The notes: a model not told the origin generated them from the letters alone. A stretch of DNA of 64,000 bases from Microbotryum violaceum (GCA_001244265.2 CDLV01000008.1:868001-932000); one strand, 5' to 3'; positions 19,801 through 59,213 are shown, counted from the stretch's first letter. A program made the numbers and translations.

Positions 19801-21106
19801 CCGAGTGGCATGATGGTGAGGTCGTACGACTTGTGGTAGATATATTGCTTGATATCGAACGATTGATCGGTTCGGACTTGGATGTTGCAGATCTGTTCCA
19901 GGAGGTACATGGTCAGTCATCGATTGGCTCAGGTGTGCTTCGAGTTGGCAAACTCACATGCAAATTGTCAATGACCTCTTGCACGGCCTCTCCTTTGGAC
20001 CCTGGTGTGGCCGTCAACGCCAAGATCCGAAAGTGCGGATTCCGGCACATCAAATACCGCACCACACCACAATACGCATAGTCACCACTCGCTCGATGCG
20101 CCTCATCCACGACCAAACACGTGATATCCCTCGGATCGACGCGACCTTTCCTCAGATCGTTCTCGACTGTTTGTGGGGTACTGTAGATGACTCGTTTTGT
20201 TGCCCATCCGATCGATCGTAGCTTGGGGGTCGTCGAGCCTGTCAACTCGACGCAGTGCTCTTGAGGTATTCCGGTTGCGAAGTGGCACGCGGTAATCTGT
20301 TGACGCACGAGCGGTCGTGATGGAGCCAGGAAAACGATTTTGCCCCGTGGGAACCAGCGATAAAAATTGAGCCTGATAAGTTGAGAGGTCGAGAGGTCAG
20401 ATCACAATCTTCATAGGTCCGAGTGAGAGGAGTTCGCGAGCGAGACCCACATGACACAAGCGGCGATGAAGGTTTTGCCCAAACCAGTCGGTAAACTAAC
20501 GAGCGTGTTGTTGAGCAAAGCGACGTAGACGATGTCGTACTGGTACTTGCGCAGTGGCTTGTCGACTTGCACGGGGTAGACCCACGTCTTGATCGCTTCT
20601 CGATCCGGCTCGCACTTCATCGGCAAGGGTGGCGCATGAGGGTCGTAGGTCGTATTGACGAAGAATGTCGGCTGATTAGGATCATCTTCGTCGTCGTCGT
20701 CTTCCAGCACTGACTCGTCGTCGTCGTCACCCCATCCATTGTACTCTGTCGCCTTTCCTTTACCCTTCCCTTTGGTCTTGTAACCAGCCGCTTTCCGAGC
20801 CACAGCAGCATTCTTCTTACTCCATCCATGCTTGGCAAACATCTCCCTATCCCACACCTTGACCGGCTTGACCTTGGCCGCATCGAACGCGCCTTGCCGA
20901 GTCGTCGAAGCATGCTGGGGTCGAAGATTCTTTTGCGCGGCCGGAGGAGCAGCAACGATGGGTTCTCCAAAGAGGTTGCGTTGGGTCAAAGCTGAGGCGT
21001 TGACGCTTGTTTTGGGCGGAAGTTTGAGTCCAGTTGCGTAGGCGATCTCGAGCTGGTCCAGTTCGTCCAGGCCATCGTCATCAAAGTCGAAGCTGTCGGA
21101 CGACAT
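16865..21106 (-). CDS. MPH1: FANCM/Mph1 DEAH-box DNA helicase
   Basis: [42 protein letters not shown] and QRVGRTGR helicase motifs. Confidence 0.93.
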
Positions 21107-21820
21107 CCAAGCTGGGGCGAAAGAGAGGAGACCAATCGGGGGCGATCGTTGCAAGAGAGAGAGAGAAGTGCCGAACGAACCAGCCCAAGGCTGACGGAGG
21201 TTGAGCCTGATTGAGGGGAGTGGTATCCAAATCGTCTTGAAACCACAAGACAAGTCAATCCCAGCACCGAGGGTGAGCTCCGAGGGGGGAATCAATGTCA
21301 ACCAACGAAGCTCGACTAGGGGAGTATCCGCCCAGGGGCCGATTAGCGTGTGTAGAAGATGACGCTGTAGCAGGTCAATGACGTACGTCTGGCAGTATGA
21401 TGGATGACCGACAGCGAACGCAGCCGCAGCTACATCAAGACCGCGGGCGGTGGCGAGAAGGAAAGGTTGGGAAACGGTGCGACGTGCAGTCACGTCCTCG
21501 TCACGTCGAGCGATGACCTGCGACGACAGGCGATGACTTGGCCGACCCGCAGTGCGCGCGCACGGACCGGCTTTCTCGGCAAAGTCGCGCCTCGATCTTC
21601 TGGACGAGGGTGATGGCCATGTCTTTTCCAGTGGCGGGTGGATTTATAAGGCCGAGATGACCGCTCTCTGACAGTCTGACCCCAAGCTGCAACAAGCTAA
21701 GCTGGCTTGCCAACTCCAAGTCACAAGCTGGGAAAATGATATTGAGGTGTAGTCGCCCTCAGGCACATCGGTATCACCTATACGTAGGTCGCCCTCTGCA
21801 TGCATTACAACAGCACCTCC

Positions 21821-22516
21821 TCAAACGAATCTTAACGAATCGGCCTGTATCCGGTATCCAGGATCACGCGGCACAGCAGGATCGCCGATCGGGTCCCAAA
21901 CGAGGATGAGCGCTTGCGAGAACACGCGCGGTAACCAATCGTAGTCCTTCGAGTGAGGTGTCGCTGTGTTGGGTGGGTTGGTTCCGTGGGTCACCTGGTG
22001 TGTAGAAGAGGGCAGTCAGTAGTGAGTGCATCGTGGGTTCGTGCCTTCTGTCTCGAATACTGACCTGACCCGTTACGGAAAGAACGAGAGAAGGGGGTCC
22101 CATCGATGTAGAGCCTGCAGGGGGAGGATAACACCGGAGAATCAGCACATGCGTTTTGAATGTACCAGTCCCACGCACGCACGCACCAGCAACAGGTTGA
22201 CAATCGAACGACTGCACCTCGTGCTTGCTGACGGGTAACCTCGTCGCGAAAGCGGCCAGGTCACTCGCCGGTATCGGGTTCCCGTTCCATGTGATCCTCG
22301 CTGTTGGGTGGTAGAGCTTGCACACCGCTTCGGGCCGTTTGGTAGGATCGAGGTCTTGGGCGGAGTAGTAAGCCTATGCGAGAGGAGACTGTCTCGAATT
22401 AGTTGAGGCTCGCATCTAAGCCGACCGAACAATAGACTGACCTTGACGAATTCTTCCGCCACGCCCGCAGCAGCTTGGATCGCTTCCCCGGCCGATGTCG
22501 ACGCGTTGGCTTGCAT
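21821..22516 (-). CDS. NXT1: NTF2-related export protein (Nxt1/p15-like)
   Basis: AEEFVK|AYY, ITWNGNP, LPVSKHEVQSFDCQPV, LVLSVTGQV, RVFSQALIL and the terminal IQADSLRFV*. Confidence 0.8.
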
Positions 22517-22660
22517 TGAAGGCAGGTGTCGGTGGGTGAGCCCTCGAGCTGCCGAAAGATGGAGGAGAGAGGGCTGTGCTGACGAGCCTCCGTCGACGAT
22601 CATTCACGGCGCGCACGCTCCGCCGAAATCGGAATTAGGTTAATCCCGCGAATAGCAGGG

Positions 22661-22840
22661 CACTTTGGTTCCGAAAATGGCGACTCTGGTCCCGCACCGG
22701 AGGCGACTCTGGTCCCACATCGGAGGCGACTTTGGGATCACATCGGAGCGGACTTTGGGATCACATCGATGCGGACTTTGGGATCACATCCGAGGTCATT
22801 CTTGTACCACGTTCATAGGAACTTTGGTACCACATAGTGT
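22661..22840 (+). repeat. Subterminal tandem array, ~8 units of ~23 bp (GACTYTGGKAYCACATCGGAGGC-like)
   Basis: Units start at about 22661, 22682, 22705, 22728, 22751, 22774, 22797 and 22820. Confidence 0.9.
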
Positions 22841-23454
22841 AGAGGCCTGTATCTCTTGCAATATGTAATGTATCACTCTGGGGAATGTAGTATGATGTAT
22901 GTACAGGTCTATAGTACTTCTGGCGGGTGAGACGAGGCGGACAATGCAGTAGTTGCTACATCGGGGTTCTTCCCCGCTGTGCCGCTCCGCGCCCGTGTCA
23001 GCGGTTAAACCTTACGCCGATCGTCACGAGGCAGCAAGCGTAGCTTGCAATAAATATCATAGGGTGGAGCAAACGTTTTTTTTTTCTTTCTTGCTGACTA
23101 GAATACTTATGCGGTAATGACATAATCACTACATGGGTGAGCTGTAGTGTTCCTTAGGCCTGCAATCGTTAGCACCCTTATTCGAGAAAATTCAAATATT
23201 CGGCGAAAGCCCTGGGGCCGCGCCAAAACTCGCAGGCGCTCGTCGTTTGACGGGCTACACCGGCAAACTCACGAATGCCCCTGAAAGCAGCTCCTTTCCT
23301 CAGAGCTTCACACGCTCACTGGTCTTTCCCCCCACTCTCTCTTTCTCACTACACATAAAGTCCTCACGTAAACACTCCTCCCTATCTTAGTCGCGCGGAA
23401 ATACTGTGCATCTACCCCAAACGACGCCCAGTGAGGGGTTTACCTTCAAGGTAG

Positions 23455-25341
23455 ATGGCGCCGGTCGCACTCATCATGTCGACAGGAGAAATGAGCCAAC
23501 TGCTCCAAAACAAAGGGGACCGACCACCCATCGCGTTGCAGGAACAAAGCTCCCCAGAGGGATACGCATCGGAAGTTGACTCGGAAGTGGATGAGGATGA
23601 GGACAGTCTGCAAGTCTTGGCAGCTTTGGTCCCGGTTCCCTCAAAGTCCTCGATATCTAGCCCCTCCGCAGTCTCGGGGCTTTTAATCTCTCCAAAGAGC
23701 CGTTCGAGAGACTCCGACGAGGATTCGGCAGACGAGGGTTACTACGGAGTCGACGACGACAATTCGGACGAGAAATTAATTGACAACATCTTCTCGGCAC
23801 TACTCCTGGCTCGGAACGACAAGAAGATCCTTGACCGGCACACGTACGAGCCCTCTCGACAGGACAAAGAGTTATCGAACACGACGCGCGAGGCAATTTT
23901 CTCAAACATGATCCTCACGACTGCAGAGCACAACGAGCTCCGTCTCAGGCCGCTTGTTCTCAATTGTCGCAAGCCGAGGTCCGGATGGGAATTTGTACGC
24001 AAACTTCCTGTCCTGGAGCTCCCAAAGTTTATGGCTACAGAGGTATGTTGAAGCTGCATGCTGCGCTGCGTTTTGTTTCGTCCTGTGAACGACCTAAATT
24101 CCATTGGTGCGATCTATTAACAGAAGCATGACTGGGCTCCACGCAAATATGAACGCTGTCTCGCTGTCGTCGAGCGATCTTACGGTGACGCGCCCTCGTC
24201 TACTGATCATCAACATCCGTCGGAGGTGGCGGTGGGGATCGAATGGCGTCCGGAAGTGCCTATCACCCTTCGAGAAGCTTGGAGTCAACCCGGCGAAGGT
24301 CGACCTGTTGCGGAGGTTCTACGGATTACACATCGTTGCTCGGGGGCCTGTAAAAGAGTTCGGGTCAAGGATGGCAAACTTGTGTACAAGAAACGAGACA
24401 ATGACAAGGACCCCGGGAAAACATGCTCTACTCAACTCAAGGTGATCATCCCGGATAGGAAATCAAAGGAGCTTGGGTTGGGTGGCTGATAAGACTCTCT
24501 GTTGCCTTCTTCGTCCCTTGTGTAGATCCTCGTTCAGGCCGACGATCTTTCATCGGCGCTGGTGTACACCCTCGGCAACCAGGAAGGACGCCAACCACCG
24601 CCGAGCGTCCGACGTCCAGCCCCTTTCATTCGTGCGTTGGCGCATCAGGAAGTCTTTCGGCAGGCCAACACGCCCACGCTTGCATTTCAAAGTGAGTGTG
24701 TGCTCCAAGTTTGCACAAGAAGTTTTCACTTCTCAAGACTGACCATCAGTTCCTTTCTCGATGATGGACTCGATCATTTTACAGATATGAACCAGCGGAT
24801 GTCGTGTTTGGGAGAAACAGAACGAGATCATTCTCCCGCAGTACAGGAAAGTCGACGCAAAGCAGCTGCGCAATATGTTCAGGGCAAAAGGTCGACAGAA
24901 CGCGCAGCATGGATCCTCCTTGTACTCGCTAGCTCGCACGGCTGAGCTGAGACCGTTCACCCTTCAAAATGCAACGGAGCCCGAGACACGCGGAGTGGCC
25001 TAGTGAGTGATCAAGATCTAAGCTGCTTGCCGAGCTGATGAGCTAACAAGCGGCGGAGGTATTTACCCTTGTCAGCTTTCAACCTTTTAATGAGAAAACG
25101 AAGCAGCCGTTGATCTGCGTCCTTGCCTCCCTCCACTCCATCGACGTGTTGATTTCCTTCGCCACAGTTGGGAACGATTCAGGCGATTGGTCGCGGTTTG
25201 TTGGACTTGACTCAAGCTGGCGATACCTGAACGAGAACCGCGCCCCCTCACCGCCCTCGTCGCAACTGGCTTGAAAGACAAACTTGCGCTAGGTGAGAGC
25301 CCGGGAAGCACTTGAAAGGAAGGTCCGGACGAGTAAGACTC
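23455..25341 (+). pseudogene. Truncated duplicate of the transposase 5' region (N-terminal exons up to the first catalytic Asp) inside the left arm
   Basis: Same exons as the minus-strand gene in the right arm; breaks off shortly after GLDSSWRYLNENR. Confidence 0.75.
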
Positions 25342-25577
25342 CTTACAAGGATCGCGGCGCGCTCCTCGACCAGCCTCTTTACCGTGTCCAAGTAGATGAC
25401 GAGAGTATCTGCCTTCACATCACTGGAGAGAAGCATAGGATCTGAAGAAGACAATACATAAGCGATGAAATGAGTCTTTGTACTCGTCCGGACCTTCCTT
25501 TCAAGTGCTTCCCGGGCTCTCACCTAGCGCAAGTTTGTCTTTCAAGCCAGTCGCGACGAGGGCGGTGAGGGGGGCGC
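25340..25577 (+). repeat. 238-bp direct copy of 29927-30164, forming a local hairpin with the end of the left arm
   Basis: TCCTTACAAGG...GGGGGGCGC is present at both places with one mismatch seen. About 25473-25577 is the reverse complement of about 25240-25341. Confidence 0.9.
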
Positions 25578-25784
25578 AGTTCCGTATTCACATGTAAAAA
25601 CTTGGCTCGCTTTACCTCTCCTTTTCTTAGTGCAGCTGCACAAAGTGAACAAACCATTTGTCAGCTCTTTCTTGGTATGATGAAATACTAGACTGTACCT
25701 ACTTCGAGCATGGATGACCTAGATCACACTTCAACTTTCGGTCTCGACATTGCGAGCAAGCTTTCCGCCGACTGGAGCTCGGGG

Positions 25785-28700
25785 TCACGCTTTCCGCTTC
25801 CGAATGACGCCGTTTGCTGGGAGTAACAACAGCGGAAGGGCTACTCTCTTGAGGAACCGCAGAGTGCTTGCATTTTTTGGTAGGTGTTCGAGATCGCGCG
25901 TGGCGAATACTGGCGAAAATGAAGGAAAGGCGAGTGTTGGTCGGTTCAGGGGCGAATCGGATTGGTCCGATGCAAGACGAGTTCGTGCTGTCGACATGCT
26001 GTTTCCTTGTACAGATCCCACGTGTGACAAACCGCCAGGTTGTGGGTGCTGGATAATGACTGTGTCAGCAGAGGACGAAACATTCCTTGCAAGTCTCGAC
26101 CCCTCGAAGGTTACGGATCTCGTAGACACACGGGTGGAAACTAGAGCGGCGCAGACACAAAGAGAGGAAGGATCATTGAGTGACAATCGGGAATCAAGGG
26201 CACGAGCAAAGCCAAGAAGTTGCTTTTTCTGTCCTGGAACTTACTGTGATGTTGTGAGACTTCTTCCGCGTCGTCACTGCTGTAGCCTGCGCACGAAACA
26301 ATGGCCGGGTGATGAGATCAGGGGTGAGTCATTCCGAAACAACAAGGGACATGAGGAGGAGAAGAGCAGAGCTCCATAGGACAATAGAGCATGCAGGAGC
26401 TTCAATATCCTATTCGAACTCACCGACATGATCTCCAGGCTGTGTATTGCCATGAGGCTTCCTGCTATCCATCGCGTTGTCTGGATCACGAGTAGCACAC
26501 GAGACGGTTGGAGACTCCGGCGAGCCCGAAAACCAAGACGAGCTCATGTCGCATCGTAGACGAGAGTGCAGGGTGACATCCAACATATAGTCTCGAAGCT
26601 CCGAATAAAATCTTCCCGGCTCAACCTGTGGGCCCCAGCTCCAATCGGGTTCCATTTTGGCGACTGCTGCGCATACCAGGGTTTCCATCGCTCGGCACAC
26701 GAACGCCCCACACGCGTTGCCATCAGTCTGTTGAGGATATCTATCCGGTTGAGGCTGATCGCCGGCCTTCGCCGCTTTGACAATCAATCGCTTCCAATTT
26801 CTGTACGGGACCGTCGGTCGATCGATGCCTCCAGTGATGCGCTCTATCGGTTCCTCTGCACGAGTTTCCAAGAAAGTGATGATTGACTGGCAGGCAGAAA
26901 GGGCGAATGACGTCAGCAGCTGCGCAGAGTTTGAGCGCCTTTGAAAGTGCTTTGTGATGGTCATGGGGATGAACTCACATCGAGACTTTCGTTTGCCTCC
27001 TTGCGCATGTTCTCCCTGCCAAAAAGAGAGTCGTACACCCGAAATGTACAATCCGAAAGGCGTGCCTCGACAAGTATCCAATGATTGGTGACATGAGTTG
27101 GGAAGAGTAGAACTGGTGTTCGAGAAAGGATAATCTGGTAAAGGGGCAGCGCAAACAAAGAGGCAGGCCTCCTGTCAATAATGATAGAAAGATATGCTCG
27201 CGAACTCCCATCCGAACTCACCCCCTGCTGCCGCTCGGTTGGTCGAGTGCCTCCAATTCCCTTGGCGCATTTTCCTCCCTCGAGATAGAATGCGTAGCAT
27301 GTTGTTTCAAGGTCATGAACCTCTTCTGACCGACCATTGAAAAACAATTGGCCTTGGAACCGATTAATAGCGCTGCTGAAAGCATCGATGTGCGAAGCCC
27401 TCAACCACAAATTGGCGTTGGCCATCTCGCGCAAGGAGCTCAAGTTCAGACCTGGTGCGTGGTCGCCGGCGTGAATGTCCAGGAATACGTCCCAATCAAC
27501 CTTCTGAACCTCGTTGGGAATGCGCTCGATAATGTCCTTAACGGCGGAAACATTGCTTCGGCGCTCCTCCGGCTGAACTGTATCGTAGATGTCGAGTGGA
27601 AGACGTCCTTCTTGTAACGGCGCGAGCTGGCATGGTGGCCTCTCGTCGTCGCTCAGTTCTTCGATGTCTATGACCTCGGAAATGGCCGCCATTCGCTTGG
27701 CAGCCGCGTAATCTTTGGTCGAGGATAAGCTGTTGGAAAATTTCGTCTCACGTGGGCGTCCACGGGTCTTCCCAAACTGAGTGGTTCCGTTCTCAAAGAT
27801 GGTGTGTTTGGAAGTTTTTGGACGAAGTTGATCAGGATTGAGCTTGTCGCGTATCAAACGTCTAATTGCTGCCGTTGCTTTGCCATCGACTCTCCCCGAG
27901 TGCTCGAGCGTGACCCCTGAATTTGACTCCGATTTTGAGAGTTTCGGTTTGGCTGTCTTCTTGCTACGATGGGGTTGCAATGGCCGATTCCTGGCTGATC
28001 TGCCTGTGTGACAGAACAAGACCAGATTGGAAGGGAAGTCTCCGTTCCGGCAAGGCGTTCAGACATTGCTCACCTTTGACAGTTGAGCAAATTGGCTGAA
28101 ATTCAGCAACATCGGCTATATCGGCAGCGCGTTGGTCCTCGTCCTCGGCGTCCGAATCCACCTCGTCGCGTTCGTCGAGTTCGTCCTCTGACAAGGGCTC
28201 GTCTGGCTCGTTGTCTTCCTCCAAAGCCGATCGCATTTTAAAGTCCAATACTTTGTCGACCAAGGCTTCGACGGAGGCGTCGTGGAGCTTGCTTGATTTT
28301 GTTCCGTCCCGCATGTCCGACATTGCTTTTGCCGCTGCTGCTGCTGCCATGATGCGGTCTGCAAGAGAAATCCCACACCAATTGTCAGATTGTAGGCTTG
28401 TGAAGCCGCTACGATGGTGATCAAAGCTTTCGGACGCACTCATCGCTGTGTGGTAGTCGCCATTGTGAACCAGCAGATCGCACGCCCAAAGATGAGCGCA
28501 TTTATTTCTTGTTTGCTTGAATGCGCGACAAGGACAATAAGGCGCGCGAGTATCGAGAGTGATTGATGAATCCATGGATCTGAGTTTGAAATCAGAAGCA
28601 TTCTCGCGTCAGTAAGGGTTTGGTAGCCAAGGCACTGGTAGCCGTAAAACCTCACCGTAAACTAAGCACCCACTGGCCCTCCTTTTCGGTAGGGCGGAAC

Positions 28701-31700
28701 TGTCCAAGCTCCCAGATGTCCATCGAATTTACCAGAGTATCTCGAAGAATATGATCCGGTTTTGCATCCGATACGTCCTTCCAAATGTCATAAACTAGAG
28801 CATTGTCTAGTAAGACCACAACGAGATTGTCGATCCTAGCAGGTGCAGAGCGCAAGCAGAATTGTCAGCTCTTCCGTCGAGATTCGCTCCTTGAGTCCGG
28901 TGCTACGCAATACCTCTTGTTGGCTCGGCCGTGGAGATGCTCTTGCTGGATGGTCTTGAAGGCTCGTTCAGTCACGTTGTTGGTGTTGATGGTTTCCCGT
29001 GAAACGCCAAGGGGTAAACCATCATCTGTGTATGTTTCTTCAGAATTGTGGAAATGCGTGAGCCAAAAAAACTGTGAGAGAACACGTAAAGAAGGAATAA
29101 GTAAGACTCACCGATCCACTCTTGTACGAACCAGTTGACATTGAAATACGCCCGAAAGTTATCCTTCTTTGCTTGTAATTGTTCTTCTTCTCGGCTGTTG
29201 CAACCCAGTTCCGACTTCTTGGTGACGTCTGATTTGTTTGCTGCTGGCTTGCGACGACTTCGGAACTCTTTGTCGAGCCATGCGTCCGATTTTTCAAAGA
29301 ACGCCCGCTTCTTCTCTTCGAATTCAGCCGAGCGCCGAGCTGTCGCCTCGGCATCTGTTTCATGCTCGGTGCGTATAAAACGAAAGCGCTGGATGATGGA
29401 TCGAAATTCGTACAAAATGTTGATCAACGTCTTGCGAGCAATCCGAGAAGGCTTGACGGTGTTGCCCCTTTCGCCGTCATTCCTGTCACTCGACCACCGA
29501 ATAATGGCCTGAACCACGTGGAATTGGCAAAGGCGTATGTGAAAGTTGAGGTTGTGCTTTTCTTTCCCTATAGTAACGTAGATGCAGAAGACAATGATCA
29601 TCAGGAATTCAAAATCGTGAGAGCAGTCTGCACATCTCATATAGTAGCCCTAGCAAGCAGCGGCGCTTACAGAGTGTCAAGGCGTTGAGCTCAGTCCGAC
29701 ATTTGTCGATCATGAAATTCGGTAGTTGCCACTGATTTTCCAAGATGAATTCGGCATTTTGGAGAAGATTTGGCAACCTGGGGGCAGAGCCGGGTAGGTT
29801 GGGCCCATTCTCACGAGCTTCTGAAGTACGCATGCAAATCGTCGACGGTACAGAAGGGCGTGAGCGACTCCTCCCAAAACTGTCGTGACGCGCAGCACAC
29901 CCTGGTCAACCCATCTTACAACGCAGTCCTTACAAGGATCGCGGCGCGCTCCTCGACCAGCCTCTTTACCGTGTCCAAGTAGATGACGAGAGTATCTGCC
30001 TTCACATCACTGGAGAGAAGCATAGGACCTGAAGAAGACAATACATAAGCGATGAAATGAGTCTTTGTACTCGTCCGGACCTTCCTTTCAAGTGCTTCCC
30101 GGGCTCTCACCTAGCGCAAGTTTGTCTTTCAAGCCAGTCGCGACGAGGGCGGTGAGGGGGGCGCGGTTCTCGTTCAGGTATCGCCAGCTTGAGTCAAGTC
30201 CAACAAACCGCGACCAATCGCCTGAATCGTTCCCAACTGTGGCGAAGGAAATCAACACGTCGATGGAGTGGAGGGAGGCAAGGACGCAGATCAACGGCTG
30301 CTTCGTTTTCTCATTAAAAGGTTGAAAGCTGACAAGGGTAAATACCTCCGCCGCTTGTTAGCTCATCAGCTCGGCAAGCAGCTTAGATCTTGATCACTCA
30401 CTAGGCCACTCCGCGTGTCTCGGGCTCCGTTGCATTTTGAAGGGTGAACGGTCTCAGCTCAGCCGTGCGAGCTAGCGAGTACAAGGAGGATCCATGCTGC
30501 GCGTTCTGTCGACCTTTTGCCCTGAACATATTGCGCAGCTGCTTTGCGTCGACTTTCCTGTACTGCGGGAGAATGATCTCGTTCTGTTTCTCCCAAACAC
30601 GACATCCGCTGGTTCATATCTGTAAAATGATCGAGTCCATCATCGAGAAAGGAACTAATGGTCAGTCTTGAGAAGTGAAAACTTCTTGTGCAAACTTGGA
30701 GCACACACTCACTTTGAAATGCAAGCGTGGGCGTGTTGGCCTGCCGAAAGACTTCCTGATGCGCCAACGCACGAATGAAAGGGGCTGGACGTCGGACGCT
30801 CGGCGGTGGTTGGCGTCCTTCCTGGTTGCCGAGGGTGTACACCAGCGCCGATGAAAGATCGTCGGCCTGAACGAGGATCTACACAAGGGACGAAGAAGGC
30901 AACAGAGAGTCTTATCAGCCACCCAACCCAAGCTCCTTTGATTTCCTATCCGGGATGATCACCTTGAGTTGAGTAGAGCATGTTTTCCCGGGTCCTTGTC
31001 ATTGTCTCGTTTCTTGTACACAAGTTTGCCATCCTTGACCCGAACTCTTTTACAGGCCCCGAGCAACGATGTGTAATCCGTAGAACCTCCGCAACAGGTC
31101 GACCTTCGCCGGGTTGACTCCAAGCTTCTCGAAGGGTGATAGGCACTTCCGGACGCCATTCGATCCCCACCGCCACCTCCGACGGATGTTGATGATCAGT
31201 AGACGAGGGCGCGTCACCGTAAGATCGCTCGACGACAGCGAGACAGCGTTCATATTTGCGTGGAGCCCAGTCATGCTTCTGTTAATAGATCGCACCAATG
31301 GAATTTAGGTCGTTCACAGGACGAAACAAAACGCAGCGCAGCATGCAGCTTCAACATACCTCTGTAGCCATAAACTTTGGGAGCTCCAGGACAGGAAGTT
31401 TGCGTACAAATTCCCATCCGGACCTCGGCTTGCGACAATTGAGAACAAGCGGCCTGAGACGGAGCTCGTTGTGCTCTGCAGTCGTGAGGATCATGTTTGA
31501 GAAAATTGCCTCGCGCGTCGTGTTCGATAACTCTTTGTCCTGTCGAGAGGGCTCGTACGTGTGCCGGTCAAGGATCTTGTCGTTCCGAGCCAGGAGTAGT
31601 GCCGAGAAGATGTTGTCAATTAATTTCTCGTCCGAATTGTCGTCGTCGACTCCGTAGTAACCCTCGTCTGCCGAATCCTCGTCGGAGTCTCTCGAACGGC

Positions 31701-31943
31701 TCTTTGGAGAGATTAAAAGCCCGAGACTGCGGAGGGGCTAGATATCGAGGACTTTGAGGGAACCGGGACCAAAGCTGCCAAGACTTGCAGACTGTCCTCA
31801 TCCTCATCCACTTCCGAGTCAACTTCCGATGCGTATCCCTCTGGGGAGCTTTGTTCCTGCAACGCGATGGGTGGTCGGTCCCCTTTGTTTTGGAGCAGTT
31901 GGCTCATTTCTCCTGTCGACATGATGAGTGCGACCGGCGCCAT
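25785..31943 (-). CDS. MULE transposase-SWIM-Ulp1 (peptidase C48) fusion, multi-exon; 5' exons show frameshifts in this copy; 3' end approximate
   Basis: D1 GLDSSWRYLNENRAPL (~30200), D2 FMIDKCRTELNAL (~29710), CxxH IRLCQFH (~29525), E TNNVTERAF (~28970), SWIM CPCRAFKQTRNKCAH (~28510), Ulp1 NHWIL...VYDSL and QQTDGNACG. Confidence 0.82.
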
Positions 31944-32813
31944 CTACCTTGAAGGTAAACCCCTCACTGGGCGTCGTTTGGGGTAGATGCACAGTATTTC
32001 CGCGCGACTAAGATAGGGAGGAGTGTTTACGTGAGGACTTTATGTGTAGTGAGAAAGAGAGAGTGGGGGAAAGACCAGTGAGCGTGTGAAGCTCTGAGGA
32101 AAGGAGCTGCTTTCAGGGGCATTCGTGAGTTTGCCGGTGTAGCCCGTCAAACGACGAGCGCCTGCGAGTTTTGGCGCGGCCCCAGGGCTTTCGCCGAATA
32201 TTTGAATTTTCTCGAATAAGGGTGCTAACGATTGCAGGCCTAAGGAACACTACAGCTCACCCATGTAGTGATTATGTCATTACCGCATAAGTATTCTAGT
32301 CAGCAAGAAAGAAAAAAAAAACGTTTGCTCCACCCTATGATATTTATTGCAAGCTACGCTTGCTGCCTCGTGACGATCGGCGTAAGGTTTAACCGCTGAC
32401 ACGGGCGCGGAGCGGCACAGCGGGGAAGAACCCCGATGTAGCAACTACTGCATTGTCCGCCTCGTCTCACCCGCCAGAAGTACTATAGACCTGTACATAC
32501 ATCATACTACATTCCCCAGAGTGATACATTACATATTGCAAGAGATACAGGCCTCTACACTATGTGGTACCAAAGTTCCTATGAACGTGGTACAAGAATG
32601 ACCTCGGATGTGATCCCAAAGTCCGCATCGATGTGATCCCAAAGTCCGCTCCGATGTGATCCCAAAGTCGCCTCCGATGTGGGACCAGAGTCGCCTCCGA
32701 TGTGGGACCAGAGTGCCTCCGACGTGGGACCAGAGTGCCTCCGACGTGGGCCCCAAAGCCGACCTTATGTGAGCCCAAAGTGACAAGCGAGTAGAGCGGT
32801 TATGTGTGCGTGC
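30060..32813 (-). repeat. Right inverted arm (long TIR)
   Basis: Reverse complement of 22630-25341. Confidence 0.95.
32557..32782 (-). repeat. Subterminal tandem array, ~10 units of 22-23 bp
   Basis: Same unit as the left array, inverted; outermost unit ends CCAAAGTG at 32782. Confidence 0.9.
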
Positions 32814-33237
32814 CGCCGAAATGGTCCGTGCGAGCGCACCGGCGTAGTGCCAGCATCATGCCATTCGATGAATATTCACCTGTCTACGCGTTTTCTTCTT
32901 CTTCCAGTCGAGTCAGGCAAAAGGGGCTTCACTGGACATGAATCGACTAGTAATTTCAAGGGGTGGGGTCCGAGCTCAAGACGCGAAATGTAATCAGTCA
33001 TCATGCGGGTAAGCGGACAACGCGCTTGCGATGACGATGAGATGCGCGAGCTCTCGCGAGCTCAACCGCCGGGAGCTCCTGGAACGTCGAGCCCACACGA
33101 CCGGCCGATTGCGCTCTTGCACCAGCGCCTTCGCCTTTCGCACCTGCACAGACAACCTCCCTCGACGTGGTACAAAGTGTCGATTGGCTCTACACGTCTC
33201 TCGCTTTTCGTCGAACCTGCACAGACGCTGCTAAGGC

Positions 33238-36200
33238 ATGCTGTCCCGACTGAGGCGGCGGTCCGCGTCGGGCACCACGCCCGAGCGCCAACAGATGTCG
33301 TCGTCGAATGGTGCTACGTCGTCGAATGGCACGGGCTCCGGCGCCTCACCGTTACTGGGACCGCCGCGCTACGAAGACGACGAAAGCCTTTACAGTCCAA
33401 CTTGGAACGAGGAACAGTCGATGTCGTCGAGCTCGTTGTCCTCGCCGACCACGTCATTACGACGACCGAAACACTTGAACGTCAGTCACCTCGGCGGCAC
33501 CGATCACTCGCCGAGCGGTGCTGCCAGCCCCGGCGCGCCCGGCGGCCCCCACTCGAGCACCACCAGCCCCGACAGCAGCTCGGCTTCGATGCTGGCGAGA
33601 TCCCCGTCCTCAGCCTCGTCGACGCGGGGCAAGTACTCGCTGCCGTCAGCCGGCCCATCGCCACCATCGCCGAACATGCCCCGTCGCAAGTCACGCAGTG
33701 GGTCCGTCTCGTCCTACGTCGAAGGAGGCAACCCATCGCCCGTCGCGTCCAGTTCGGCAGCGGCAGCGGCCTCTCAACAGGGTCGCTCGACCTCGCGCAC
33801 CTTTGTACCGGGCAAAACCAAGGGAGCGTCCAACCGATACTTCGTCGTCAACAAGACTACCGCCGTCGACGAGAGCCTCGCCAACTTCGGGTCCGGTAGT
33901 CTCTCCCTCGACCATTTGACCGGCGGCGCGTCAGACCCAGCCGCCCTCGCAACCGGCGGCGCGACCTGGGTCGCTCGAGCCCCCGAACTAATCAGCCTCG
34001 ACGTCGGAGCCAACCCTGGCGCGCCCGGCGATCCGTCCCGACTATCCCAATCGTCAAGCGAGGACAACATCAGGACACCCATGCCTGGCGATGGTCCGAC
34101 GAGTCAGCCCGATGCTTACTTTGGCGTCGCTGCACCCGTCGAACAGAGGCCCCAGTCGGTGCCGAGTTCGGCCACTGCCTCACCCGTCGTACTCTCCAAA
34201 GGCGGCGCTCCCTTCAACCTTGACAGGCTACTACCACTCCCTGCGAGTGGACACAGCTTCCTGCCTCCCGCCGAACGTGGTGGGAGGGCAAGATCCCACA
34301 CCACCTCCGAGGCACCCCCACCTTTCGCGAATCGGCCTTCGACCGGCATCGACACCAATCTCACCCACGGTTTACCTCTCCCGTCCCTCTCGGCTCGACC
34401 CAACATGGAGACAACACCGAGAAACTTTGTCATGGTGCCCAACCCCGTTCCCGCAGCCGATCAGGCGGCAGCCGCAATTGAGAAACGACCGACCAGTCGA
34501 AGTTCCTCCGTGACTTCGAGCGATACTTCCAGCCCTGCCCTGCTGCGACCGCCACTGCAATCTTCTCCCACCTCTTCGATCAAGTTGAAGCGACAAAAGT
34601 CGGCCCAGGGGATTGCAGGGGCTATTGCAGTTTCGGGGATGGCACTCGCTGCCACGGGGACAGGTTTCCGACAAGCGGGGTCGCTTTCTCGCACCTCAAC
34701 CCGCACCTCCTTCGAGGAAAGAGGTTCGGGCGCAGAATCGGACGGTGGCGTGTCGAATGGGGGTGGGGATCAGTATGCGAATGGCTTCAGTCTGGGCGAT
34801 TATGAGGATGCGATGACGAGCTTGGGCACGGGATATGCAGTGGCGAGTTCGAAGCGTAATGCCGAGTTCCACCAGCTCTTCAAGAATATACCCGATGACG
34901 ACTATTTGATCGAAGGTGAGTGCTGGGAAGGAACGAAACTCTTTTGCCTGACGAGGATGCTGACTTGTGCCCTCTTTGCAGACTACGGCTGTGCCCTCCA
35001 ACGCGAGATCTTGATCCAGGGTCGTCTCTACATCTCGGAACACCACATCTCCTTCAACGCCAACATATTCGGCTGGGTCACCTCGCACACCCTCCCGTTT
35101 GCCGAAATTGTAAGCATCGAAAAACGAACGACGGCGTACGTCATCCCGAACGCAATCCAGATCGTAACCCTGCACGCTCGACATACATTCGCTTCGTTCC
35201 TCTCCCGTGACTCGACCTATGATCTCATCTGCAACATCTGGCGTATGATCCATCCCGTAGTCCCTCCTTCGGCGGCCTTGCCCGATTCTGCGGATCGAGC
35301 GGGCTCCGTTCATCATGACTCCGACGAGGACGAGGTCGACGATGATGGATCACAACCTACCAAGAAGAGTGGCAAGCGAAGGCTAAGGGGATTGAGGAGA
35401 CGTGGAGGAACGAACGAAGAGAGGAAAGGTGATGCGGTCGCTTCGACGAACTCCGGTGTGACCTCGACGCACGTGAACGGATCAACCAGTCGGATGGTCA
35501 ACCCTTCTTCTTCGAGTCTGGGAGGACCTGGCGGACCTTCCAAACCGGCTGCGGTGTTGCATGCTGTGACGGCGGACAGGTGTCCTACGCACAAGGACTT
35601 GAAGGAGGTTTGCATGGACGTTGTGTTCCCGTCTGCGCCGGAGAAGATCTACAACCTCATGTTCACGAGCGGCTTCATGAGGACATTCTGGACGGAGAAC
35701 CAAAAGTTGATGGGTAAGAGAGAGTTTTACCCTGATGTCTGTCCAGTACGTCATTGACTCGCTGCTGTTCGCATCTTACGCAGACCTACATATCTCCGAT
35801 TGGGCCCCCGAAAAATCTGATTCGAACCTCCTCGCCCGCAACCTATCCTACATCAAACCCCTATCAGCCCCAATCGGTCCCAAGCAAACGAAATGCATGA
35901 TCCTCGACGAGACGGCGCACGTCGATTTCGATGATTACGTCTGCGTCATCACGACGACGAGGACGCCGGACGTGCCGAGTGGTGGATCTTTTGCGGTCAA
36001 GACGAGGACGAGCATGACGTGGGCGAGGAATAACTCGTGTAGGGTCGTTGTGACGACGGGCGTGGTGTGGACGGGTAGGAGTATGCTCAAAGGTACGTCT
36101 GGCTCCTCTACTCACTAATGAGGCCGTCAGGCGCAGTCTCTGACCCTCGACGATACCCTTTCTTTCTACGATAGGCATCATCGAGCGATCTTGCATCGAA

Positions 36201-36914
36201 GGTCAAAAAACGTATCACGTCGATCTAGAGAACGCAATGCGCGCCTACATCCAACTACACCGCTCCGAGTTCCTCGAAGAAGGCCAAGAACCCATCTCGT
36301 CCTTGGTGACGGAAAATGAAAACAACGACGCCCAGCGGATGGACCAAGATGAGAGTGACAAAGGCGACGACGCGAATGAAAAGATCGGCTCGGTTCATCG
36401 TCGGAAATCGAGGGCTGCTCCGATGGGTGGGGTTTGGGGCATCATTACCGATGCGTTCTCGGACTTGACTGGTGGAGGAGCACGATCATCTGGGGGCGGT
36501 CTCTCACCTACGCCGCTCATTCTCGCGTTAGTGATCCTCATTCTCGTCCTTTCGAACCTATGGACCCTCTCTAGTCGACCCCAATCGACGTCCCCCTCCC
36601 TTTCCCCCGGCTCCCGAAGAAGTTCCGCCCGTTCCTCCCCTTCAACAGGCCACGACCAAACCCCCGACCAAATCGCCGATGCCATACGTGACGTATTACG
36701 AGACTATCTCGCCTCTCTACCCAGTCGCGAATATGCCCCTAACGATGCGACGACTTTACCCGTGTCGGAGGAGGACTCGTCGAAGGAGGATGGTATCGAG
36801 GCTCCTTCGAAAACGGATAAGGCTTGTACGCCGAGGGAGACGGCGGATATTGGGCAGATATTGGATGGGTTGCAGGTGAGGTTAGATGAGATGAAGTTGA
36901 AGTTGAAGGGGTAG
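33238..36914 (+). CDS. GRAM-domain / VASt (StART-like) lipid transfer protein (Ysp2/Lam family)
   Basis: KRNAEFHQLFKNIPDDDYLIE|DYGCALQREILIQGRLYISEHH (GRAM), TPDVPSGGSF (VASt) and a C-terminal TM LILALVILILVLSNLW. Confidence 0.9.
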
Positions 36915-54789: not shown

Positions 54790-56602
54790 ATGTTCCACTC
54801 ACAAAAAGTACTCGCTCAAACTTCTCGTCGACTTCTTCACACCCAGGTCGGACAAGATCCACTGCCCCGCATCGTAGGAGTCGTCGGCACCACTGGTGTG
54901 GGCAAGACCAAGCTTGGGGTCGAGCTTGCGAGGGCTGTGCCCTCCCTAGCTGCGCACCCTGGTCCTGGACGTTCCGCCCCTGACTCGCGGCTGGCCCCCA
55001 TTGCGGAGGTTATCAATTCCGACTCGATGCAATTCTACAAAGGCTTCGACATCATGACGAACAAGACGACTCCTCGAGAAATGCAAGGCGTTAAGCACCA
55101 CCTTTTCAACATTCTCGAACCCGACCAGAGTTATTCGGTCCAAGATTTCGAATCAGACGGGCTTAAATTGGTGAATCAAAACTGAATGAGCCTCAAGGAT
55201 CTTAGTAACGGTCTCACTCATTCAATGTCTCACCGCGAGCTTAGATCCGAGACCTGTGGCAGCGGTCGGCCGTCCCCATTTTTGTGGGGGGATCCGACTA
55301 CTTCCTTAGACATCTGATTTTTGGCCACGGATCCACTGGCAAGCCGGTGTCTTCGTGGGGCAGCATGGGGCAGCGTCAGGAGCAGGCGCCGAGGCAAGTC
55401 GAACCGAAGGAAACTAACTCATCCGGTACGCACCGGTCACCTCCCTAGTGCTCGAGCTTACGTCATGTGCAAACGTGATGTCTTGATTCCACAGATACAC
55501 TACCCTCATTTTCTGGCCTTACGCTGAGACCAGCGTGCTGAACAAGAACCTGGACGATCGTGTCGACAAGATGGTCGAGGTCAGTCGAGTCTCACTAAGC
55601 GATGACAGGGGCCATGGCGACCACAGCGAGCGGTCAGCTGACTGACACCGGCCATATGTTCTCACGGCTTCATGGCTCATTATATGTCATAGCTTGGCCT
55701 TCTGGAGGAGGTTGAGCAGATGTGGGCCTTGCAAGGCCGAAACCTCGAGACCGCCGATTGGTCGAAAGGGGTCTTTCAGTCGATCGGTTCGCCACATCTC
55801 ACTCGTGACCCGTGATTACTCTAGATTGGTAGTGAGCTGAACTTATAAAACCCTTATCGACCAAATAGGCTACAAGCAACTGCTTCCCTATATCTCAAGT
55901 CGCCACGGCTCTTCGATCTTGCCTCAGCTCCTACTGGAAGCCGGCATCGAGCGCACCAAGACCGCAACCCGTCGGTACGCGCAACTTCAGATCGATCGGC
56001 TCAAGAACGCGCTCTTGCCGACGGTCAAAGGGCTTCAAGATCCTGCCAAAGTGACTGTGGTGATGCTTGATGCGACGGGTGAGTCTGAGCCCATGACAAA
56101 TCCACAGTGCTGCGGGGCCAAGACAATGGTCGTCCTCCACATTGGACATAGGCGGCAGCTACTGACGGAACCGTGGTCGGATCCCTCTTCCACGTGGCTA
56201 GACCTCACCCGGTGGGAGGAAAACGTTCGACAACCGGCTCAAGCATACCTGCGTGGTGAGTCCTCGTTGGAGCGGACCACACGTGCTCGAACTCACGGAT
56301 CTCTCTCTCTTTCCGTCCCGAGCCGAAGCTAACGCTTGATCTCTTGTTCTCAGCGTTCCTGGCGAACGAGCCACTCCCCGATCCGACTTCTCTATCTCCT
56401 CTCGCCGAGCGCCATCTTTCTGGGATCCCGTTGCAGTGAGTACACTTTCGCCCAGTCGGTCCCTCGAGAGCTTTTTACTCATGCCAACCGAGATTGGTGA
56501 ATCGGCCACAGTCAACCTGGAAGTGAGCGCATGGTCGACCCCAGTGCTTCGGTCGCTGACCTGCTTGCGTTTGATCACGCGACGCGTAACTTCAAGCAAT
56601 GA
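54790..56602 (+). CDS. Short isopentenyltransferase paralog lacking the tRNA-binding insertion and zinc finger; stop at 56439 or, with one more intron, 56602
   Basis: GTTGVGKT, NSDSMQFYKG, TNK, VGGSDYF, LDDRVDKM, QSIGYKQ and TRRYAQLQ. Intron positions match the neighbouring MOD5, with one GC-AG intron at 55394-55494. Confidence 0.8.
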
Positions 56603-57093: not shown

Positions 57094-59213
57094 ATGATCT
57101 CTAGAGTAGCTCGATCCGGAACTCTGCAGCTCAGATCACGTGCTTCGTCCGTCGCCCCGACGCAGCGCGTCCGGCAGACCGTTCTGCGCACGATGAGCAC
57201 GCTGCCTGTACAGCGCCCCCATGTCGTCGCCGTCGTAGGAACAACAGGTGTAGGCAAGACCAAGCTCGGAGTCGAACTGGCTCAAGCTGTCGCGTCCATG
57301 GCTCTTTCGTCGTCGTCGAACTCGGGAGCTGAAGTGATCAACTCGGACTCGATGCAAGTGTACAAAGGGCTTGATCTCATCACCAATAAAGCAACCGTGG
57401 AGGAGATGCAAGGTATCAAGCATCACTTGATGGCCTTTCTTGAACCGGGTCAAGAATATAGCATCAATGAATTCCAGGCGGATGCGCTTCGTTTGGTCGG
57501 TCCCTTCCGTCGATACAGACGTTGGAAGGATGACACTGACCTATACAGCGGAGGGATTCGCACAGATCGATGATATGCGAAATCGGGATACACTACCCAT
57601 TCTCGTTGGAGGCACCACGTATTATCTCCAGCACCTTGTCTTCCCGAACCAGCTCGTTTCGGATACCCCGGCCATTTCAGTCCCAAGGACGACTCCCACC
57701 GAACCCCTACCTATCTCAGCAACGCACCACTTCCCTCCCAAACTAGTCGAACATATCCATGCGTTGCCACACGAACTACTGCAGTTATTCCTCGCCCTCC
57801 CATGCCTACCACAAACCTCGACCCCGGATTCGTTCCCTCCGAATTTCCCTCTTGGGCTCGTCCCCGAACCTTATCGATCCCCATCGGACTTTGCTCCAGC
57901 TCTCTACGACCTCTTGGACCGGCTCGATTCGCGTAGTGCAGAACGATGGCATTGGAGGGATATTCGGAAAGTCCGGCGAGCGCTCGAGATTGTTTGGGAG
58001 GGAAGGCAATGGGATGATGTCATGCAGGAACAGAATCAAAAGGGACGAGGACAGGCAAGGTCAGGGATTGCTCTCAAAACGCTATCAGGAAATCTACCAA
58101 GGAATGAGAGCTGATACACTTGTTTTCCTTGAGGCTAGGTTCCCGACTTTGATCTTTTGGCCTTATGCTGAGCCCGAGTTGCTTTCGAAACGACTGGACG
58201 AGCGGGTCGATCGCATGCTTCAAGTGAGGCAACGCTCCACCCCACTCAGGCAATGTACGTGTACTAATACAGTCGTTCGGTACAGTTGGGTCTCTTGGAA
58301 GAGATCGAGCAACTGTGGGCTCTTGCACACCGGAAAGGAGGCGAGGGTTCCGACGAAACCGATTTCTCTAAAGGGGTCTATCAAGCAATCGGTGAGCAGC
58401 CGAGCTGTACCGGCGCCGAGCTAGACTCAGCGCCGTGCAGAATCTGAACCCTCTCGCTCCCCACAGGCTATAAAGAATTTTCGCCCTACCTCGCCTCCAA
58501 GAATGACTCTTCCATCGATTCAAAATCCCTCTTCGATGCAGCTGTAGAAAGGATGAAGATCTCGACGCGCCAATATGCGAAGAAACAAGTCAAATGGATC
58601 AAAAGCAAGTTGTTGCCCGCGATCAAGGAGTTGGAGACCCATGCGGTGACGATCGTTTTGCTTGATGTGACAGGTGAGATTCAGTCGTGGCAAAGACTTT
58701 GGCGACCGTGCCGCGGCGCTGATTCGTGATAGGTGAACAGATTTGGAGAAATGGGAGGAAAACGTTCATAAACCCGCCATCGAGTATCTACGAGGTCAGT
58801 AGAAATGGTTAAATATGTTCTACTCTCGATCACCATCTAATCTTGTGCTATTGAAATTGTACAGCTTTCCTCAATGACGAGCCCATCACCGACCCGGCCC
58901 TACTATCTCCCGTCGCTCAAGAACATCTCTCCGTCAGCAATACAGGGTCAGGACACCTCCTCTAACAAGCCACTACCCATAATCACGTCCTCTGATGATC
59001 CCTCATTCTTCCAACAGCTCCCCCGCCCGTCCAAAACGAGCTTGTCCGATATGCACCGACGATCCCTCTCGCCCTTTCTTCGTTGAGTACCATCTCTGGG
59101 ATTCTCACTCTCGCACCAAAACGCACAGACGACGATTGCGGGAAGTCGGAACACGTGGTCGAAGACCGCCTCAGCGGGAAGAGCGCGAAGAACGGGAAGA
59201 ACGTACAAAATGA
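57094..59213 (+). CDS. MOD5: tRNA dimethylallyltransferase (tRNA-IPT), full length
   Basis: GTTGVGKT, DSMQVYKGLD, VGGTTYY, WHWRDIRKVRRALE, QAIGYKEF, TRQYAKKQ and a C-terminal zinc finger CPIC...WDSHSRTKTH. Confidence 0.92.

Follow-up and report, generated by a model that had tools for sequence, protein, structure and literature searches.

Large genomic palindromes carry near-identical inverted arms that are kept alike by arm-to-arm gene conversion. Among transposons, the described system closest to the locus treated here is Mu killer of maize, a partial inverted duplication of mudrA with two copies of TIRA, for which a hairpin RNA of ~4 kb has been proposed (PMC3440606). In composite Ac/Ds insertions of maize, inverted duplications that arise through aberrant transposition or replication are transcribed into double-stranded RNA (dsRNA) and the family is silenced (bioRxiv 10.1101/2020.01.07.897926). 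A survey of 1,631 autonomous Mutator-like elements (MULEs) gives terminal inverted repeats (TIRs) of 14-500 bp, and of 22-99 bp in the fungal Hop and Mutyl sub-groups (PMC6446971). Mutator elements that encode a Ulp1 protease are named from hydra, lancelet, Arabidopsis, maize, rice, and melon, and fungi are not on that list (PMC2836005). Here, we analyze 64,000 nucleotides of Microbotryum violaceum (CDLV01000008.1:868001-932000; the window), which contain a 10-kb MULE-type DNA transposon copy whose long inverted arms include the promoter side and the 5' exons of its transposase gene. We lean towards reading this palindrome as a rearranged derivative and not as the normal form of its family.

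The window copy has the anatomy of Mu killer: in both, the end of a Mutator element and the 5' portion of its transposase gene are present as an inverted duplication. The two ends of Mu killer carry one and the same TIR and the remainder of the element is missing, whereas the window copy has a left-type terminus on its left and a full core. Moreover, the hairpin RNA of Mu killer comes from read-through of a flanking gene in a plant host, while the window copy belongs to a basidiomycete. The Ac/Ds insertions differ further, as they concern the hAT superfamily and require two nearby elements and re-replication, whereas template switching within one element would explain the window copy. With canonical MULEs such as Hop and Mutyl it has in common a 9-11-bp target-site duplication (TSD), a DDE transposase with CxxH and SWIM motifs, and a promoter near the element end. 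It departs from them in its arms, which are 2.65 kb long and coding, in its outermost 30 bp, which are not inverted repeats, and in its protein, which is far longer, carries Ulp1 and Zn2Cys6 domains, and is linked to the Pfam MULE family through matches of its relatives only. Unlike the large genomic palindromes, which are multi-gene chromosomal structures, this palindrome is a single 10-kb transposon copy.

A repeat search on 21000-34500 paired the collinear inverted blocks 22683-25335 and 30068-32714, and the claim of the sequence-only reading that more than half of the element is inverted repeat was borne out. Its further claim, that the transposase gene starts within the arm, held as well: the start codon lies at 31943, residues 1-534 of the relatives map to 31943-30109, and the right arm encodes this entire portion, start codon and first catalytic Asp included. 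Aligned globally over ~2,650 bp, the arms differ by two substitutions in the body (24747 and 25264), two at the outer edge (22694 and 22697), five indels of 1 bp, and one of 3 bp. The 1-bp indels are all located in homopolymer runs of G or C, and the 3-bp one reflects slippage of an AAG repeat unit. These indels may be long-read consensus errors, in which case the true arms would be closer still.

On the plus strand, the order is the left terminus, an inverted copy of the sequence from 32714 down to ~30065, a junction with 2-6 bp of microhomology, a 243-bp direct copy, and the core from 25583 onward. Read without splicing, the left arm finishes at its inner end with ...LALGESPGST (25283-25312). 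The 243-bp segment comprises the terminal part of one exon, an intron, and the exon PMLLSS...ILVR, and its left copy abuts the last codons of the gene; the sequence 25243-25335 and this direct copy pair as a 93-bp stem with a 145-nt loop. An inner junction that consists of a fold-back next to a 243-bp duplication argues against native TIRs. Nor is the organization that of a foldback (FB-type) element, since tandem repeats occupy only ~200 bp at each end and the remaining arm is unique coding sequence.

The outer limits of the element were examined through a direct repeat and through contigs from other copies. Three occurrences of the nonamer CGCCGAAAT were counted in the window, where 0.82 would be expected, and the element is flanked by two of them, at 22621-22629 and 32814-32822. 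A C before the nonamer extends the direct repeat to 10 bp. The repeat lies outside the first CACTTTGG by 31 bp on the left and 30 bp on the right, in agreement with the 30-31 bp described previously for both ends. We also placed Logan contigs of four runs (X1, X5, X6, and X9, with four organism labels) on 20600-34800. Contigs from other copies run off into mutually different flanks at 22626-22629 on the left (six in X1, two in X6, and three in X9) and at 32814 on the right (two in X9); these break points place the termini within 1-3 bp of the repeat. Matches of at least 10 bp between two 100-bp flank windows are not exceptional by chance, arising in 17 of 2000 shuffles and in 31 of 3000 pairs of real windows. 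Nevertheless, we accept the repeat as a TSD because it abuts ends that the other copies set independently. The 10-bp CCGCCGAAAT at both ends agrees with the TSD length of MULEs, and such a duplication is expected around the element whether or not the fold-back unit was inserted as a whole. The flank contigs of X1 and X9 carry a 3-bp insertion (TGG) at 32821, just inside the right TSD copy.

Contigs from the left flank enter the element from unique sequence, up to 22656, in all four runs, and the insertion therefore occupies the same site in all of them. Right-flank contigs beginning at 32785 are listed for X1 and X9, and no empty-site joint of 22629 to 32813 occurs among the contigs listed for the four runs. 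The flank contigs of X6 show no difference from the window, and those of the other runs differ at 3-8 positions per 2 kb. Mean word depths, which represent neither copy number nor local depth, are 6-58 in flank contigs and 37-700 in core contigs, and the arm bins rise toward the ends.

The same contigs and the gene models of related species outline the architecture of other copies; for these loci, the evidence consists of gene models and short contigs. Each of the four runs has contigs from other copies that depart from the window exactly at 25583 into different sequence. Read together with the window, the departing sequence gives ...E-Y-V-stop, which is the C-terminus of P0002, P0006, P0171, P0200, and P0201 (...FTCEYV). 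The window protein would instead end in ...FTCEY followed by 13 extra residues, and the canonical 3' sequence beyond 25583 occurs nowhere in the window. The common departure point and the shared ...FTCEYV end indicate that canonical copies have a different 3' region in the place occupied here by the duplication and the left arm. This family of cut-and-paste transposons is multi-copy, with nine core-bearing gene models on eight contigs of M. silenes-dioicae (C002, C004, C005, C007 twice, C008, C010, C012, and C020). An N-terminal-only model lies near one of the nine (C007g04693), and no other N-terminal fragment of at least 90% identity was found among the M. silenes-dioicae gene models apart from this one and a pair on contig C001. 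The proposal of the sequence-only reading that the element represents an undescribed family of coding-TIR MULEs, with the long arms as native architecture, was not supported by these comparisons: the fold-back junction with its 243-bp duplication, the departures in four of four runs, the canonical stops, and the single case among nine models all speak against it.

The pair on C001 adjoins the orthologous flank. The right end of the element in the window lies 426 bp upstream of the start of a GRAM/VASt-domain gene, the M. silenes-dioicae orthologue of which is BQ5605_C001g00522 (12 of 1,071 aligned residues differ). Both of the models that follow, C001g00523 (526 aa) and C001g00524 (527 aa), correspond to N-terminal pieces of the transposase that extend to residue ~511-520. 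One of them terminates in ...LALGESPGST, identical to the unspliced inner-arm reading of the window. By its gene models, M. silenes-dioicae too has a two-arm structure adjoining the orthologous flank gene. With two N-terminal fragments and no annotated core, the C001 locus resembles Mu killer even more closely than the window copy does. P0001 was also considered as the orthologue of the window locus and rejected; the orthologue of the flank gene is on C001 and P0001 is on C008.

The two C001 fragments have in common six private substitutions and a private 18-residue insertion, and they differ from each other once before their tails. The Asp in ...KVDAKQL is found in these fragments and the window copy only. 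Three N-terminal substitutions are, in turn, private to the window copy and present in both of its arms, as follows from the arms differing at two body sites only. Without conversion, a between-species divergence of at least 0.4% predicts ~10 or more arm-to-arm differences, and two are seen. The simplest reading of these patterns is that arm-to-arm gene conversion homogenizes the arms, such that changes made after the species split appear in both arms in each species. Recent origin or ongoing conversion had been suggested from the near-identity of the arms, and the species-private changes at the orthologous locus support conversion.

The encoded protein, of ~1,650 aa, comprises an N-terminal region, a MULE-type DDE transposase domain with CxxH, a SWIM finger, a Ulp1 protease domain, and a C-terminal fungal Zn2Cys6 domain. 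The minus-strand stop-to-stop frames gave weak Pfam matches only, to Peptidase_C48 and Zn_clus. A 225-aa frame (28975-29649) used as a query returned six proteins from M. silenes-dioicae, M. lychnidis-dioicae, and M. saponariae: four are 82-97% identical and 1,493-1,700 aa in length, one is a 432-aa fragment (95%), and one is a 1,268-aa model (49%). Peptidase_C48 (PF02902) scored 29.7, 31, and 24.1 bits in P0001, P0002, and P0005, above the cut-off of 20.7, and Zn_clus reached up to 27.1 bits in P0001 and P0002. With PF02902 above its cut-off and both the His and the Cys motif of Ulp1 in the window, the element can be counted among the ULP1-carrying elements. It thereby resembles the KI-MULE/VANDAL group and the hydra and lancelet MuDR types, in which Ulp1 (Peptidase_C48) is likewise encoded in the element. 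It differs from them in that the Microbotryum models fuse Ulp1 in one frame behind DDE and SWIM, followed by Zn2Cys6.

Distant relatives were collected by a HMMER search of a protein library with the DDE-SWIM region (473 aa of P0001), which gave 177 proteins at E<=1e-3, of which 88 reached E<=1e-10. From the 177, we scanned 55 shorter proteins, picked by length, against Pfam, and seven more singly (62 in total). Among the 55, matches were obtained to MULE (PF10551) in 32 (best E 2.4e-14), to SWIM (PF04434) in 14, and to Peptidase_C48 in three; among the seven, P0008 matched MULE with 35.7 bits (cut-off 27.6), and P0009 and P0035 matched Peptidase_C48. The consensus motifs of the relatives (DSSWR..., MIDK..., CQFH, and NTNN..E) were all located in the window. 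The SWIM assignment draws on the CxC...CxH motif of the window as well as on the relatives, and P0004 is named a SWIM-type protein by one source. A language-model Atlas search ranked MULE clusters first (0.94, 169 shared features), which we regard as a lead only. SWIM and Ulp1 occur in Zisupton too. KDZ transposase and CxC domains were absent at E<=1 from P0001, P0002, and P0005, and from the five families matched by the 55 relatives. By linked homology and its 10-bp TSD, the element is assigned to the Mutator superfamily, and the original identification as a fungal Mutator-like element was supported by the TSD and by the MULE homology of its relatives.

Zn_clus was absent from the Pfam lists returned for all 62 distant relatives scanned. 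The Zn2Cys6 tail, noted in the window at 25584-25761 and in the gene models P0002, P0006, P0171, P0200, and P0201, thus seems particular to the Microbotryum lineage and has the appearance of a gain within that lineage or of an exon captured from the host. A narrow literature search found no description of a ~1,650-aa MULE family combining DDE, SWIM, Ulp1, and Zn2Cys6. As assembled, the reading frame is interrupted. Relative to the left arm, the right arm has four 1-bp deletions, three of them in exons, and the left arm is short of one base; a base present at 25875 in contigs of all four runs is missing from the window, and this loss shifts the frame before Zn2Cys6. These single-base losses could be consensus errors, and we do not call the gene dead.

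Several observations weigh against the interpretation of the palindrome as a rearrangement made at this site and with the consequences proposed below. None of the contigs listed spans the fold-back junction or the 25582/25583 junction. After ...QVFTC, P0001 ends with a second PMLLSS...ILVR exon, which fits the presence of the same 3' duplication at a non-orthologous locus, with at least part of the rearrangement not made in place. The model C007g04690 (residues 1-173, then retroelement-like sequence) is three gene numbers away from the core-bearing C007g04693, and this locus could be a second two-arm copy. At C001, one of the fragments carries a 15-residue tail, MKGTRSLSSLTGDLS, with no match in the window, and none of the nine core-bearing models is on that contig. 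The odd tail and the missing annotated core mean that the internal structure of the C001 locus, as known from gene models, differs from that of the window. P0001, P0002, and P0005 had no match to the MULE, SWIM, or KDZ families of Pfam at E<=1. Finally, the hairpin, antisense, and truncated-protein consequences are purely conjectural.

It is possible, although we consider it rather unlikely, that a small MULE lineage normally exists, and is able to transpose, in this palindromic form, with arms that travel at each jump and a TSD that records the whole 10-kb unit; this would limit the original proposal to a sub-lineage. A single TSD surrounds the whole unit and both termini are intact; P0001 on C008 appears to carry the same 3' duplication; and C007g04690 and C007g04693 represent two N-termini within four gene models, with no difference between them in the first 173 residues (variable-column table). 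In P0001, a donor inside TGT-GAA and the native acceptor fit an intron of ~150 nt across the same core-to-duplication junction. In addition, the window copy shares diagnostic residues with P0001, P0173, and P0174 that separate these from the copies with the canonical end. Other features argue in the opposite direction. The last residues of P0001 (SAL-stop) agree with the native intron context and not with the fold-back junction of the window. P0006 has the C-terminal diagnostic residues of the window copy, yet its end is canonical. A lineage that normally moves as a palindrome is also difficult to reconcile with an N-terminal-only model near just one of nine core-bearing models, and with other-copy contigs that leave the window at 25583 in every run. 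Insertion of two separate copies, with a truncated second copy lying head-to-head inside or beside the first, is very improbable. Nested and adjacent copies are common for transposons, and on C007 an N-terminal fragment is fused to retroelement-like sequence. In the window, however, the inner end of the left arm lacks an element terminus, no second TSD surrounds either arm, and the junction lies inside a gene intron and shows microhomology. Furthermore, the outer 53 bp are left-type and the adjoining sequence is that of the right arm from within the repeat array, and two insertions would leave the 243-bp direct duplication unexplained. The near-identity of the arms, with differences that are mostly homopolymer indels typical of a long-read consensus, and the lack of a listed short-read contig across the inner junctions are also what an assembly artefact would produce, in which the left arm is a long-read fold-back chimera and the real locus is an ordinary copy. 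We find this scarcely credible, because the independent assembly of the sister species has two adjacent N-terminal fragments beside the orthologous flank gene. The structure is also internal to the window, with its left-type terminus reached from the flank in four of four runs and its right-type terminus in X1 and X9. As a weak hint in the same direction, X6 contigs end at 25335 and 29954, the de Bruijn branch points expected if the fold-back junction and the second copy of the 243-bp segment are real.

If the palindrome is a rearranged derivative, the right-hand 2.65 kb, comprising the promoter side and the exons for residues 1-534, would have been copied in inverted orientation in place of the interior beside the left end. 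This copy would begin inside the homologous subterminal repeats at 22683 and end at the fold-back junction (25336-25341). A microhomology junction combined with a 243-bp direct duplication is the signature of template switching or fold-back priming, and from this junction anatomy we infer that either could have occurred during repair or replication. The arms would afterwards have been kept alike by gene conversion. With the native 3' region lost, transcripts from the promoter of the right arm are predicted to run into the antisense left arm and could form a long hairpin over 2.65 kb. The promoter of the left arm, in turn, might drive antisense RNA across the core, or expression of a truncated N-terminal protein of ~527 aa such as that annotated in the sister species. 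The locus may thus act as a source of dsRNA or as an inhibitor against its own family, like maize Mu killer. The machinery for such a response is described in M. lychnidis-dioicae, where one RNA-dependent RNA polymerase, two Argonautes, and one Dicer are all expressed (PMC4469406).

As a tentative and on present evidence unlikely extension, the locus might represent a naturally arisen and retained fungal "transposon killer", that is, a palindromic MULE present at one site in two species, with arms maintained by conversion, and with read-through or convergent transcripts that would form kilobase-long dsRNA, feed RNA interference, and repress the whole family, or else a self-limiting, palindrome-carrying MULE lineage. 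If the reading as a rearranged derivative is right, the locus would be a fungal counterpart of Mu killer, present in two species and in an organism that expresses Dicer, Argonaute, and RNA-dependent RNA polymerase, and the initial trigger of DNA-transposon silencing would become testable in a basidiomycete. It would also mean that a 2.65-kb coding "TIR" may be a secondary inverted duplication, such that junction anatomy and sibling copies are needed before a new family is named. In addition, the locus would offer a small, datable case of arm-to-arm conversion in a fungal palindrome.

The two ends of the element are organized asymmetrically at their tips. The outermost 30-31 bp (22630-22660 and 32783-32812) are unrelated to each other, yet both are common to other copies. 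Inverted similarity of the ends begins at CACTTTGG, together with arrays of 22-23-bp repeats. The subterminal core motif has 13 matches in the window, all of them no more than ~250 bp from an end of the element (0.29 expected), and the 22-23-bp repeats are probable binding sites of the transposase. Functionally, the element appears to have asymmetric tips and inverted subterminal arrays rather than true TIRs. Loose ends were also observed at 22997 and 32427, where some contigs keep only the outer 370-390 bp and then continue into other sequence; non-autonomous relatives or the canonical left end would fit these contigs. The coordinates of all features are collected in Table 1.

Table 1. Features of the palindromic MULE copy and its surroundings (positions within the window).
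Feature	Position	Strand	Basis
Whole element, MULE-type DNA transposon copy read as palindromically rearranged, 10,183 bp	22630-32812	-	Repeats, arm alignment, protein mapping, contig ends
Left TSD copy, 10 bp, CCGCCGAAAT	22620-22629	.	Letter match; contigs of other copies end at 22626-22629
Right TSD copy, 10 bp, CCGCCGAAAT	32813-32822	.	Letter match; X9 loose ends behind 32814
Left-type terminus, 53 bp, shared with contigs of other copies; not the inverted complement of the right terminus	22630-22682	+	Arm alignment and contigs
Right-type terminus, 98 bp, with additional subterminal repeats	32715-32812	-	Arm alignment, repeat scan
Left subterminal array, 22-23-bp repeats with ACTYTGGKNYCACRT core	22661-22835	+	Repeat and motif scan
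Right subterminal array, whole span	32562-32782		Repeat and motif scan
Left arm, inverted duplicate of 30068-32714; second promoter side and exons for residues 1-534; start codon 23455	22683-25335	+	Repeat search, alignment, tblastn
Right arm, native 5' part of the gene; start codon 31943; GLDSSWRY (first catalytic Asp) at 30157-30201	30068-32714	-	Alignment, protein mapping
Fold-back junction, arm switches to direct copy of 29927 onward; AGACTC / TC microhomology	25336-25341	.	Alignment, sequence reading
Left copy of the 243-bp direct duplication (= 29927-30169, 99% identical)	25340-25582	-	Repeat search
Right (native) copy of the 243-bp duplication	29927-30169	-	Repeat search
Transposase gene, several introns; models of relatives 1,493-1,707 aa; frame broken by single-base deletions in the assembly	25584-31943	-	tblastn of relatives, contigs
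Single-copy core	25583-29926	-	Pfam scan, protein mapping, motif search
Second catalytic Asp, MIDK	29678-29716	-	Motif search
CxxH, LCQFH	29503-29538	-	Motif search
Catalytic Glu motif	28955-28972	-	Motif search
SWIM, CxC...CxH	28483-28536	-	Motif search
Ulp1 His	27057-27083	-	Motif search
Ulp1 Cys	26695-26721	-	Motif search
Zn2Cys6	25705-25761	-	Motif search
Last coding residues, ...FTCEY	25584-25616	-	Protein mapping
Flanking GRAM/VASt-domain gene	33238-36911	+	Exons 2 and 3 100% identical to MVLG_06606 of M. lychnidis-dioicae

Further joints were encountered among the contigs placed on the arms. Loose ends behind 24364 (X5 and X6) were considered as a canonical TIR of 1.73 kb, a candidate that was dropped: their reverse complement starts with the canonical 19 letters before 25583. 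They are better read as a candidate internally deleted derivative, in which the canonical 3' region would be joined to ~31040. Joints of 24804 with 30595 or 30598 on opposite strands (X5 and X9) were likewise not accepted as a new junction, being a placement effect of the identical arms. Additional joints in the arm sequence connect 23474 and 23572 on opposite strands (X5, X6, and X9), 23683 and 31880 (X5 and X9), and 23828 and 23890, and some of the contigs concerned are ~91% identical to the window. These joints suggest that further copies of the family, rearranged or with internal deletions, exist at other places in the genomes. A metagenome match to the 19-nt canonical 3' motif came from a single AT-rich, unrelated contig of 1,060 bp (L001) and was discarded as a chance match.

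Past residue 173, P0180 (BQ5605_C007g04690) contains a retropepsin-like DSGA motif, which suggests a long terminal repeat retrotransposon nested in or fused to this copy. Outside the element, an 87-bp direct repeat (54865-54951 and 57217-57303; 72% identity, spacing 2,352 bp) encodes a glycine-rich, P-loop-like motif and probably marks two adjacent paralogous genes.

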